A DNA stretch of 41,820 nucleotides from a virus. Each line of letters opens with the position of its first letter. Position 1 is the first letter of the stretch. The stretch lies in UHGV virus genome UHGV-1357484. One strand, given 5' to 3'. The notes under the pieces are model-generated. The model had not been told where the DNA came from. It worked only from the letters and a program-made list of their open reading frames with translations, and searched no databases. Shown here in pieces: positions 38,655-39,142 of the stretch. A program made the translations under genes and the position numbers.

Positions 38655-39112
38655 AGTCACTGGCAATGAATCGAACATTGCATGATAAAGATTATATATC
38701 CGACTGGTACGCTACTTCATTCACGTTCCCGACCTAGCTTATTAATCACGTCGTTCCCATAACCGAGGAGTACTTTATCTTACGGTCTAAGCGTCTACCC
38801 TTTCCGCCACAGTGACATAATATAAAGGCGGCACGTGAACTTTAAAGAAAACGAAGTCTTTCAACTCCATTCTTATTTATTTTGTGCCGCCAGTGAGCTT
38901 CTAACTGCACCTAAAAGCTCGTTATATACATTGTGCAGATGTTGCCTTCCCTGTTTCCGCAAAGTGGCAGTGTAGTCAAAAAGAGAATAATCCACCAAGC
39001 TAGACGTATATATGTTAAGAGGTATAAGGAGAAACTTCATGCCAATAAAGTTAGGTTGAGTCGTCTGCTTGGTGGATTAATTCATAACTCTCTGATAATA
39101 CTATTTTAGGGT

Positions 39113-39142
39113 ATTGACAAGCGGAATAATACCGCTTTTTTT
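39113..39142 (+). terminator. Plus-strand intrinsic terminator abutting the arpU stop codon
   Basis: AAGCGG-aataat-ACCGCTT hairpin followed by TTTTTTTC on the plus strand. Confidence 0.5.

Follow-up and report, generated by a model that had tools for sequence, protein, structure and literature searches.

What fills the spacer between the late-gene activator and the packaging genes of a phage, when that spacer appears to hold no gene? We addressed this question in the UHGV virus genome UHGV-1357484, the whole 41,820-nt stretch of which we refer to as the window. Positions 38,655 to 39,142 had been proposed, on the basis of nested inverted repeats, a small open reading frame and a terminator, to be either a cos or packaging site or a structured RNA. 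Our analysis leads us to favor, with reasonable though not high confidence, a model in which this region is the promoter-proximal two thirds of a modular, minus-strand non-coding leader unit of about 600 nt from which a tRNA-shaped RNA would be excised.

A predicted minus-strand unit in the spacer

The spacer between the late activator and the packaging genes spans about 480 bases and is predicted to code on the minus strand for a folded leader RNA. Every gene near the region, from 17138 to 41698, lies on the minus strand and we therefore read the region as minus-strand RNA. The polarity of the D and T loops described below is compatible with the minus strand only, and the unit is closed by a conserved minus-strand terminator. 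The minimum free energy (MFE) of the region is -172 kcal/mol for the minus strand versus -151 for the plus strand, and a thermodynamic strand test did not discriminate between the two (z = -3.2 for both). The gene that borders the region, annotated earlier as arpU, is a RinA-like (sigma-like) late-gene activator ORF (39144..39605, minus strand). It matches TIGR01636 phage_rinA at 28.6 bits (cutoff 31.9), has weak matches to sigma-70 region-4 and matches phrog_36, a transcriptional regulator; a Pfam search with this ORF returned no match. Counting from the activator, the unit consists of a promoter-like core, two hairpins that we call H1 and H2, a tRNA-like RNA, a decayed tRNA-Lys and a terminator. 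The region was thought to be free of ORFs above 30 codons, but mechanically called ORFs of 46, 55 and 58 codons overlap the spacer; none has a PHROG family at E < 0.1.

Searches of sequence databases returned little. Megablast queries with the region and with 22 kb of the window recovered essentially no close relative among published phages, and homologous non-coding stretches in published phages were found by distant-mode blastn only. Rfam 15 gave no match in the whole window at gathering thresholds, only weak chance-level matches and the decayed tRNA-Lys in 38100-39700 at E <= 10, and no family in three relatives (L001-L003) or in the shortest family member.

A tRNA-like RNA without an anticodon arm

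Architecture parsing and covariation identify a 162-nt tRNA-like RNA that lacks an anticodon arm on the minus strand at 38655..38816. From its 5' end it comprises the 5' acceptor strand (38816..38810), U8 G9 (38809..38808), a D arm (38807..38791), an insert of 109 nt (38790..38682), a T arm (38681..38663), the 3' acceptor strand (38662..38656) and a discriminator U (38655). The acceptor stem, GUCACUG/CAGUGAC, forms all seven pairs, with C-G as pair 3-70. The D arm, GCGGAAAGGGUAGACGC, is of the class-II Leu type with G18 G19, and the T arm, GCAAUG-UUCGAUU-CAUUGC, has six of six stem pairs and a canonical T loop. The structured insert occupies the anticodon position, and there is no 5-bp stem with a 7-nt loop. 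The acceptor and T stems stack to 13 bp (7 + 6), compared with the canonical 12 (7 + 5); a stack of this length might shift or impair measuring by RNase P and RNase Z.

When the RNA is folded in isolation, its MFE structure includes the acceptor stem and T arm as well as stems P1, P4 and P5 of the insert. Its thermodynamic z-score is only -0.3, so that the support for this RNA is comparative and not energetic. The window has a single copy of the core 20-mer and shuffled sequences have none, and over 38654-38820 the window copy is 98% identical to a relative, L017. The standard tRNA model RF00005 did not match 38655-38816 at E <= 10 (threshold 29 bits), nor did it match the 89-nt member in L007. 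ARAGORN, run with its intron option for both tRNA and tmRNA, called 0 of 69 unique elements and was negative on the window as well.

The frame is conserved across a family of phage RNAs

The window copy belongs to an anticodon-less tRNA-like RNA family that we found here in more than 150 phage or prophage contigs and in no RNA database or literature that we searched. Literature queries, including one with the literal core sequence, returned no description of the family, and annotated phage records have nothing marked at the element at any match. We defined members by a 7-bp acceptor stem followed by UG, a D arm G(C/U)GGAA..GGUAGACGC and a variable insert, and on the 3' side by U48, a 6-bp T stem with the loop UUCGAWU and a complementary 3' acceptor strand. 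The window copy has the exact core and full acceptor and T-stem pairing. The 20-mer GTGGCGGAAAGGGTAGACGC is present in at least 120 IMG/VR contigs and, among 185,579 species genomes searched, in 13, nine of them Enterococcus and the occurrences mostly prophage-like; the exact D-arm 20-mer was not found in real tRNA-Leu genes of the same genomes. Homologues with a T-loop motif come mostly from Enterococcus prophages; the frame also extends to Geobacillus and Clostridia phages, and the surroundings of the element diverge. Of 93 family loci, 48 have an ArpU or RinA gene on the upstream side, and HNH, TerS and TerL genes are found downstream. In the window the element sits between the RinA-like gene and terS, beside the tRNA-Lys copy.

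To assess covariation we used 124 homologues with the T-loop motif, anchored on the core and the first T-loop motif only. All 124 form 6-7 of the 7 acceptor pairs and 5-6 of the 6 T-stem pairs in a fixed register, and the 15 different 5' acceptor strands and 7 T-stem sequences among them all stay complementary. The mean number of acceptor pairs is 6.71, versus 4.08 +/- 0.31 with shuffled partners, and 97.6% of cells in the frame are paired, versus 33-46% in slid registers. Cells in which both sides have changed number 76, versus 16.7 +/- 3.9 in shuffles. None of 500 shuffles reached the observed cells paired, double-change cells, pair types or covariation score; the observed count of pairs with a double change was reached by 26 of the 500. 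Across the family, six of the seven acceptor pairs have double substitutions. The sixth T-stem pair is an invariant G-C, on which covariation has no bearing either way. U48, which precedes the T stem, is nearly invariant and fits a Levitt pair with A15. Comparison across these homologues demonstrates that the tRNA-like frame is maintained by compensatory substitutions.

The insert behaves differently from the frame. About 22 unrelated insert types occur, with lengths of 24-240 nt, and identical 60-nt flanks carry up to three different inserts, which demonstrates at the level of sequence that the insert is exchanged like a cassette. The shortest inserts (24-37 nt) form a 3-7-bp hairpin with a 3-4-nt loop. 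The type present in the window is common to the Geobacillus phages PK3.5 and D6E, with compensatory changes in stem P1 (GAUAAAG/CUUUAUC versus GACGAGC/GCUCGUC) and stem P4 (CGAC/GUCG versus GCUC/GAGC); within IMG/VR this type occurs only in L017 and L034. A search of the phage for antisense targets of at least 12 nt of the insert, H1, H2 or the linker between these hairpins found none.

Downstream of the element, what had been called a tRNA-like element is a decayed copy of tRNA-Lys(UUU) (38587..38653, minus strand). It scores 27.6 bits against the Rfam tRNA model, below the gathering score of 29, and has a gap of about 6 nt in the anticodon arm; an intact 70-bit homologue lies at the same place in EH-TP1 and L010. 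The non-coding unit is closed by an intrinsic terminator, AGAUCACUCAUUGAGUGGUCU and a U tract (38491..38521, minus strand), that is identical or nearly so in about 87 loci and is directly followed by the ribosome-binding site of the first late ORF.

A promoter-like core and two leader hairpins

A late promoter in this region, which the original prediction had also considered, is plausible, since a promoter-like core directly follows the activator gene. The predicted activator-dependent core (39095..39118, minus strand) consists of TGTCAATACCCTAAAATAG and a -10-like TATTAT at 39100..39095, has no canonical -35 box and would start transcription near 39088. The sequence AAAATAGTATTATCAGA is also present in L004, and relatives have at the equivalent position direct repeats followed by GTGATATTAT. 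Between the core and the activator gene lies the inverted repeat AAGCGG-N7-CCGCTT (39119..39142), followed on the plus strand by seven T. A pattern scan scores it as the plus-strand terminator that had been noticed before, with 6 pairs (4 G-C), a 7-nt loop and 7 T; it could be either that terminator or an operator for the activator. The repeat is 100% identical in L136, which carries the same activator. In L122, which has a different RinA-type activator, another inverted repeat stands in the same place, before a similar TGTCAA..CCCTA.AAAT core.

H1 (38988..39079, minus strand) corresponds to the long inverted repeat, first described as 17 bp, and is an 18-bp stem with one bulge and a 54-nt interior. 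Its arms consist of 13 perfect base pairs (38988-39000 / 39067-39079) and 5 further pairs past a 1-nt bulge, and its MFE is -28.9 versus -11.9 +/- 2.5 in shuffles (z = -6.8). A small hairpin in the linker between H1 and H2, GAGCUUxxx...xxxAAGCUC (38895..38920, minus strand), was detected by an inverted-repeat scan and in the MFE fold, and is not conserved, H1 being joined straight to H2 in L136.

H2 (38827..38891, minus strand) is a nested structure in which a GC stem of 8 bp encloses the inner hairpin AAGAAUGGAGUU-GAAA-GACUUCGUUUUCUU. The outer stem is the GC stem recognized earlier, GGCGGCAC/GTGCCGCC, and lies at 38827-38834 and 38884-38891, a few bases from where it had been placed. Homologous hairpins occur in dozens of loci, and their outer stems differ yet remain complementary: GGCGGCAC/GUGCCGCC, CCGCUGGC/GCCGGCGG, GACGGC/GCCGUC and AUAGACAGCAGCGGA/UCCGUUGCUGUCUAU. 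The MAFFT and RNAalifold alignment of these hairpins was too poor (6 pairs recovered) and H2 was assessed by individual folds. Nine of the 11 variants adopt the nested outer-stem and inner-hairpin fold; the exceptions are L122, which has a shortened form, and the Geobacillus PK3.5 sequence, which has a different MFE fold. In some loci a ribosome-binding site and a gene directly follow H2 in place of the tRNA-like RNA, and H2 would therefore act independently of that RNA. With its GC stem and the U-rich tract UUUAUAUUAU behind it (38826..38817), H2 resembles an intrinsic terminator upstream of the tRNA-like RNA; efficient termination there would block expression of the tRNA-like RNA from the proposed promoter. 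The proposal of a structured RNA is supported, and the nested GC-stem hairpin is conserved and covaries, but the RNA lies on the opposite strand and its tRNA-derived core had been missed. In most relatives unrelated hairpins stand in the place of H1.

These features could also be explained if H1 and H2 were a leader that regulates in cis, whether by put-like processive antitermination or as a regulated terminator, with the tRNA-like RNA as a passenger. Such a leader would carry RNA polymerase from the late promoter through two or three intrinsic terminators before terS, and minus-strand terminators do lie between the promoter and terS, at 38521..38501 and 38285..38263. Two stable hairpins directly after a promoter-like core, adjacent to each other in L136, the retention of H2 in dozens of loci, in some of which a gene and not the tRNA-like RNA comes next, and the U-rich tract at its end are all consistent with this idea, and by analogy the layout resembles lambda Q-pR'-6S-tR' and HK022 put. 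However, the hairpins resemble put or EAR in neither sequence nor structure, Rfam returned no match for them, and the swapping of H1 in most relatives is difficult to reconcile with such a role. We consider this reading somewhat unlikely, and it is compatible with the leader unit that we favor rather than exclusive of it.

Decay, packaging and attenuation as improbable readings

A second possibility is that the tRNA-like sequence and the tRNA-Lys remnant are decaying tRNA pseudogenes, or short conserved "linker" DNA through which mosaic phages recombine, with no RNA function. The adjacent tRNA-Lys copy is clearly decayed, and the inserts swap between identical flanks. Twelve loci, about 9% of copies, have a 5' half only; some copies found via their 3' half have D-loop indels; and more than 20 contigs carry a chimeric acceptor stem, GUCACUG/CAGCGAC, that contains an A.C mismatch. 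Given the 5'-half-only copies and the D-loop indels, not every copy need be functional. Decay, however, does not produce compensatory double substitutions, let alone complementarity in every acceptor and T-stem sequence, nor would it keep the frame across Enterococcus, Geobacillus and Clostridia phages amid diverged surroundings. We therefore regard this reading as improbable.

The suggestion that the region is a cos or pac site recognized by terminase draws on its position just upstream of terS and terL. In HNH-dependent staphylococcal phages the cos site is located between rinA and hnh, and the EG-TP1 record is linearized about 60 nt downstream of its own tRNA-like RNA and about 200 nt upstream of terS, although the ends of that record may be arbitrary. 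The window TerL, however, matches Pfam Terminase_6N, which we take to be of the headful-packaging type, and no HNH gene is adjacent; the frame is common to phages with unrelated terminases and different HNH contexts. Conservation here tracks RNA pairing rules and module boundaries, and the region is a mosaic of exchangeable RNA modules and not a conserved DNA site. A packaging site thus appears very improbable.

We give still less credence to attenuation, in which a plus-strand transcript would start at the sequence TGaCATAAT, encode a leader peptide within a hairpin and end at the plus-strand terminator. The elements of this scheme do exist in the right order: the -10-like box at 38813-38821, an SD-like AAGGAG (39026-39031) seven nucleotides before the 6-codon ATG..TGA frame MPIKLG (39039-39059), which together span 39026..39059 on the plus strand inside H1, and the terminator with its 6-bp stem and 7 T. 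There are, however, no plus-strand genes to regulate, since what the terminator points into is the activator gene at its 3' end. The supposed extended -10 is the reverse complement of the leader and first four acceptor bases of the tRNA-like RNA, a by-product of their conservation, and is absent from about two thirds of relatives, those with a different leader (TAATTT or TATAGT). The mini-ORF is antisense to the unit and lies in a hairpin whose pairing is preserved only in the minus sense: where L122 and L136 carry substitutions, minus-sense RNA still pairs through G.U wobbles, whereas plus-sense RNA would have A.C mismatches. The one coding difference that relatives show in the mini-ORF, MPIKLV for MPIKLG in L136, is non-synonymous, and we saw no alternative terminator/antiterminator pairing with the ORF. 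From these comparisons we judge the mini-ORF to be non-functional.

Least credible of all is that splicing of an intron restores a decoding tRNA-Leu, for although the element has the D arm, T arm, acceptor stem, U8 and U48 of a class-II tRNA-Leu, and group I introns classically reside in tRNA-Leu genes, the inserts fall short of the length of such introns, their edges differ between types and hold no conserved anticodon-stem halves, those of 24-37 nt cannot form a 7-nt anticodon loop, and the ARAGORN intron option called none of the unique elements.

Relation to known RNAs

The family shares with class-II tRNA-Leu a 7-bp acceptor stem, U8, a D arm GCGGAAxxGGUAGACGC with G18 G19, U48 before the T stem and the T loop UUCGAWU, and differs from it in lacking an anticodon stem-loop and in having a 6-bp T stem and a 24-240-nt insert. 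As in many Firmicutes tRNA genes, the discriminator is not followed by an encoded CCA in most members; L032 does encode CCA there. Position -1 is U in most members, and U also predominates at position 74; these features and the encoded CCA of L032 would be consistent with processing by RNase P and RNase Z.

Like tmRNA (SsrA), the element builds an acceptor/T-arm domain from both ends of the RNA and holds a large non-tRNA domain between them; a passage in PMC3985003 states that the 5' end of tmRNA is made by RNase P. Unlike the family, tmRNA has no D stem and carries a tag ORF, pseudoknots and G3:U70. We rejected an identification with tmRNA on the negative ARAGORN tmRNA search, the unrelatedness of the inserts to each other and the C3-G70 pair of the family.

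The MALAT1 mascRNA is a non-decoding tRNA-like structure that lies within a longer transcript and recruits RNase P and RNase Z to set RNA ends. The t-elements of plant mitochondria, also non-decoding and tRNA-like, recruit the same enzymes to define RNA ends, according to a passage in PMC1920247. The processing that we propose for the family RNA would be of this kind, but t-elements and mascRNA belong to other kingdoms and have no sequence relation to the family, which in addition has a large variable insert. The fully conserved D/T elbow together with this insert suggests more than an end-forming role.

YrlA (RF02553), a non-coding RNA that some phages carry too, mimics tRNA through a module made up of T arm, D arm and acceptor-like stem (PMC4201824). 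Its module order is permuted relative to the family, and it has a Ro-binding helix and a neighboring rsr gene. An Rfam match to YrlA at 38601-38706 reaches 23.3 bits, whereas the gathering score is 69; it bridges two neighboring elements, taking the T arm from one and the D arm from the other, and we rejected it. ROOL and GOLLD occur in Lactobacillales/Firmicutes prophages next to tRNA genes (PMC5737381), a niche that the family shares. Its element is, however, much smaller and has a tRNA-derived architecture, and neither RNA matched in Rfam searches at E <= 10 in the window or at E <= 1 in L001-L003.

Phage T4 RNAs C and D (species 1 and 2) are non-decoding stable RNAs that are co-transcribed with tRNAs and matured by the tRNA-processing machinery. 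To our knowledge no variable-insert architecture has been reported for them and their function is still unknown. They come from another phage group and host, and the likeness to the family is one of description only.

A proposed function

In the model that we favor, transcription of the leader unit would depend on the activator and begin at a promoter immediately past the activator gene. Host RNase P would cut before G38816 and RNase Z after U38655, and CCA would then be added, releasing a stable RNA of about 162 nt that is tRNA-shaped and non-decoding and that could serve as a mimic or scaffold. The same cuts would part the H1-H2 leader from the downstream RNA. The excised RNA would be unable to decode, having no anticodon, and its 13-bp acceptor/T stack is expected to disfavor EF-Tu. 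We speculate that it acts in trans. The constant tRNA frame would keep the RNA stable, allow it to be processed and let a host factor that senses the elbow and acceptor of tRNA recognize it, and the variable insert would serve as cargo or as a decoy surface that is under diversifying selection, for instance to counter host defenses that target tRNA. With regard to a protein partner, a 74-aa phrog_1202 ORF co-occurs with the element only within the Enterococcus lineage, and the association is therefore inseparable from shared ancestry; no co-occurring partner was found outside this lineage.

More tentatively, we raise the possibility that a natural "tRNA scaffold" exists in temperate phages that infect Enterococcus, Geobacillus and gut Clostridia. 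It would be a Leu-type frame that lacks an anticodon, is matured by the tRNA-processing enzymes of the host and displays a hypervariable, cassette-swapped RNA domain. Late in infection this domain would act in trans, for instance by decoying or inhibiting either host immunity that targets tRNA or competing phages. Since LeuRS is not known to need the anticodon or the variable arm, this scaffold could perhaps be leucylated. If this reading is true, it would represent a new functional class of phage non-coding RNA.

Recognition of the family fills a standard gap in maps of Gram-positive phages, the spacer between activator and terminase, and provides concrete testable positions for the late promoter, leader hairpins and terminators of this phage group. 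A tRNA frame that stays invariant while the insert within it is swapped reflects an uncommon pattern of selection. This pattern points to one part that uses host tRNA-recognizing machinery and another under diversifying pressure, and pressure of this kind is typical of phage-host or phage-phage conflict. If processed as proposed, these RNAs would be a natural counterpart of the engineered tRNA scaffolds used for recombinant RNAs and might be of use as a stable RNA-display chassis for Firmicutes.

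Results

A megablast search found no relatives of the region between the activator gene and the tRNA-Lys remnant (38655-39142). A sensitive blastn search matched pieces of it in the Enterococcus phages EH-TP1 and EG-TP1 and the Geobacillus phages PK3.5 and D6E, and every match lay in a gap without an annotated feature, downstream of an ArpU/RinA-type regulator. In an alignment of the minus strands, an invariant block, GTGGCGGAAAGGGTAGACGC, forms the D arm of a class-II leucine-type tRNA, and a T arm, GCAAGG-UUCGAWU-CCUUGC, lies further downstream. The seven bases 5' of the D arm are complementary to the seven bases 3' of the T arm, and their sequences vary by phage (GUCACUG/CAGUGAC, GUCGCUG/CAGCGAC, CCUGCGG/CCGCAGG). 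A structured RNA, one of the alternatives in the original prediction, is present, but on the opposite strand.

The window's copy is a tRNA-shaped RNA of 162 nt (38816..38655, minus strand, like all its parts). It comprises a 5' acceptor strand (38816..38810) followed by U8 and G9, the D arm (38807..38791), an insert of 109 nt (38790..38682) followed by U48, a T arm with a 6-bp stem and the loop UUCGAUU (38681..38663), a 3' acceptor strand (38662..38656) and a discriminator U (38655). The acceptor/T stack is 13 bp (7 + 6) rather than 12. The core, an invariant 20-mer of the D arm, has a single occurrence in the window and none in shuffles.

The core is present in at least 120 IMG/VR contigs and in 13 species-representative genomes; nine of these genomes are Enterococcus species, with a Lachnospiraceae MAG and Acutalibacter among the rest. 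Circularity was avoided by anchoring only on the core and the first downstream T-loop motif, which lies within 420 nt in 124 of 136 instances. All 124 have 6-7 of seven acceptor pairs and 5-6 of six T-stem pairs in a fixed register. Their 5' acceptor strands fall into 15 distinct sequences, and 6.71 acceptor pairs are observed versus 4.08 +/- 0.31 after random re-partnering. We then aligned 29 distinct frames (acceptor, D arm and T arm) with a dummy linker in place of each insert. Pairing holds in 97.6% of cells and falls to 33-46% when the register is slid; both sides of a pair change in 76 cells versus 16.7 +/- 3.9 in shuffles, and on four of five measures none of 500 shuffles reached the observed value. 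Compensatory changes are seen in the acceptor stem at six of its seven pairs and in the T stem at four of six. These data show that the constant part, a frame derived from a tRNA, is under strong purifying selection to keep its pairs. Anchoring on the 3' half added 40 contigs, 29 of them with 1-3 changes or indels in the D arm, and yielded a minimal form of 77 nt in which a 7-bp hairpin with a 3-nt loop replaces the anticodon arm.

Several loci (L numbers denote homologous loci) carry variants of this arrangement. A second, tandem copy lies ~200 nt downstream of the first in L007, L089 and ~17 other loci. The D loop (GAAGUAGAAGA) and T loop (UGCAAUC or UGCGAUU) of this second copy are both altered; in EG-TP1 and L104 an altered D loop is likewise paired with a UGCAAAU T loop. 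These joint changes may represent tertiary covariation of the tRNA elbow. At ~12 loci (for example L020, L055, L057, L060, L064, L108 and L116) only the 5' half, acceptor and D arm, is present and unrelated genes follow; recombination seems to use the frame boundary as a junction. Isolated extra T-arm-like hairpins of the GGTTCAAATCC or GGTTCGATTCC types, downstream of or inside the insert in L036, L063 and L161, suggest arrays of partial tRNA modules. Enterococcus-type copies in contigs, small or of low coverage, from unrelated genera (L124, Kocuria; L128, Stenotrophomonas, 1.4x coverage; L134, Vibrio, a 518-bp contig) look like assembly contamination.

The inserts, 24-240 nt long, fall into ~22 unrelated types. 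Most begin with a short A/U-rich linker, and most end in a closing stem whose 3' strand is separated from the T arm by two bases (AU). Among loci whose 60-nt flanks are identical, either upstream or downstream, as many as three different inserts are found. Chimeric acceptor stems, in which GUCACUG is joined with CAGCGAC, show that the two halves of the RNA have recombined. The window's insert is also found in L017, L127 (E. entomosocium) and L135 (E. diestrammenae); since stems P1 and P4 within it change in a compensatory manner in the diverged form carried by the Geobacillus phages, this insert type is itself a conserved fold. A search elsewhere in the phage for antisense targets of the insert of at least 12 nt found none. 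In many loci (for example L076, L008 and L010), but not in the window, the stretch from the tRNA-like RNA to the terminator includes a recurring module, AGCAACCGAGG...GUGUAGGUUGCU, for which no Rfam match was obtained. Its closing stem is conserved and its interior variable, the same logic of constant frame and variable core.

ARAGORN, with its intron option on, called none of 69 unique elements, and the element, including an 89-nt member, had no Rfam 15 match at E <= 10. Only two matches lay nearby. One, to YrlA, is spurious (23.3 versus 69 bits) and spans the T arm of one element and the D arm of the next. The other is a decayed tRNA-Lys(UUU) (38653..38587, minus strand; 27.6 bits, under the gathering score of 29) whose anticodon arm has lost ~6 nt and which has mismatches at A1.A72 and in the T stem. 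In EH-TP1 (L001 2501-2573, 70 bits) and L010 an intact homologue occupies the same relative position, and the copies in L080 and L122 are still more truncated.

The surroundings are a phage late-region boundary in which all genes lie on the minus strand. Upstream is a RinA-like activator ORF of 153 aa (39605..39144; TIGR01636, 28.6 bits against a cutoff of 31.9; phrog_36; weak sigma-70 region-4 matches). Downstream are a small FtsK-gamma-like winged-helix ORF (38448..38284; PF09397, 29.8 bits versus a cutoff of 30.6), a 74-aa ORF of unknown function matching phrog_1202 (38129..37905), terS (37887..37459) and terL (37481..36063). The phrog_1202 ORF has no match in Pfam or NCBIfam and adjoins terS in 84 of ~120 related loci; it may work with the RNA array as a partner or simply mark a lineage. 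The usual niche of the tRNA-like RNA has ArpU/RinA on one side and terS on the other: in 48 of 93 loci one of the two closest ORFs upstream is ArpU or RinA, and the downstream genes are HNH, TerS or TerL.

The activator gene is directly followed by a promoter-like core, in which TATTAT (39100..39095, minus strand) comes after TGTCAATACCCTAAAATAG; an inverted repeat stands before this core. This repeat satisfies the pattern of the plus-strand terminator originally proposed there. However, relatives with other activators have different repeats in the same place (TGGCGG, TGTAGGG or AATTCGGACG, each twice, and another inverted repeat in L122), so it is possibly an activator operator instead. The long inverted-repeat hairpin H1 (39079..38988, minus strand) is far more stable than chance (z = -6.8) and is shared with L122 and L136, where all three arm substitutions give G.U pairs in minus-sense RNA and A.C mismatches in plus-sense RNA. 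The nested GC-stem hairpin H2 (38891..38827, minus strand) is a separate, widespread module: its GC-rich outer stem varies in sequence between phages with complementarity kept, encloses an inner hairpin (AAGGA..UCCUU) and is followed by a U-rich tract. Because in some loci what directly follows it is not the tRNA-like RNA but a gene with its ribosome-binding site, H2 is a leader element in its own right. In many Enterococcus loci with a TATAGT leader (for example L007, L022 and L076), a conserved hydrophobic ORF of 27 codons (MIPLIISIFALCLNVYMIGFKNGQNKK), with a good ribosome-binding site, is found downstream of H2 and ~100 nt upstream of the tRNA-like RNA.

The unit is closed by a terminator, AGATCACTCATTGAGTGGTCTTTTTATTTT (38521..38491, minus strand), conserved nearly base for base in ~87 loci, where it always closes the non-coding array and the first late ORF's ribosome-binding site comes immediately after it. 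Such conservation across otherwise mosaic phages is unusually strong for a terminator. Two terminator-like hairpins stand back to back after the FtsK-gamma-like ORF (38263-38285, minus strand; 38217-38240, plus strand) and add a second terminator downstream of the leader, before terS is reached.

Discussion

Altogether our results show that the region is a modular, non-coding, minus-strand unit. The original prediction is partly confirmed as an observation and partly supported as an interpretation: the structured RNA is there, whereas its cos/pac and mini-ORF attenuation readings find no support. All of its motifs are present; as for its statement that no ORF exceeds 30 codons, the mechanical ORFs that overlap the region have 46, 55 and 58 codons, and none of them is like a known phage protein family.

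H1 and H2 could also control read-through of the terminators before terS. This role is compatible with a tRNA-like RNA, and it resembles lambda Q/6S/tR' and HK022 put in layout only. That the RNA is a pseudogene or recombination scar is a weak reading because the frame changes in a compensatory manner. The proposed cos or packaging site is likewise a weak candidate, although the EG-TP1 record (L002, PQ571292.1; ends 1 and 38020) is linearised between its tRNA-like RNA, which ends ~60 nt upstream, and terS, which lies ~200 nt downstream. A plus-strand attenuator built on a six-codon mini-ORF is similarly weak: this ORF is antisense, lies inside H1, and its only change among relatives is non-synonymous, while the TGaCATAAT box once read as an extended -10 is the complement of the leader and acceptor start and is lost in relatives with other leaders. 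An intron-containing tRNA is contradicted because anticodon-stem halves were not found flanking the inserts.

tRNA-like non-coding RNAs are already known, among them tmRNA, YrlA, plant t-elements, mascRNA and the T4 stable RNAs. This type of object is therefore familiar; the family is new to Rfam, to tRNA finders, to the phage records examined and to the literature searched by sequence and keyword, in which the core is not printed and the family not described. The family joins an invariant Leu-type tRNA frame and its 13-bp stack to a hypervariable, cassette-like insert, and it lacks an anticodon arm.

We propose that the tRNA-like RNA would be transcribed from an activator-dependent promoter and that host RNase P and RNase Z would recognise its acceptor/T/D elbow and excise it. 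Hints of processing are that U predominates at -1 and at 74 and that CCA is encoded in one member. The excised product would be a stable RNA incapable of decoding. We speculate that the frame could stabilise the RNA and let a host tRNA-binding factor recognise it, with the variable insert serving as an active or decoy surface.
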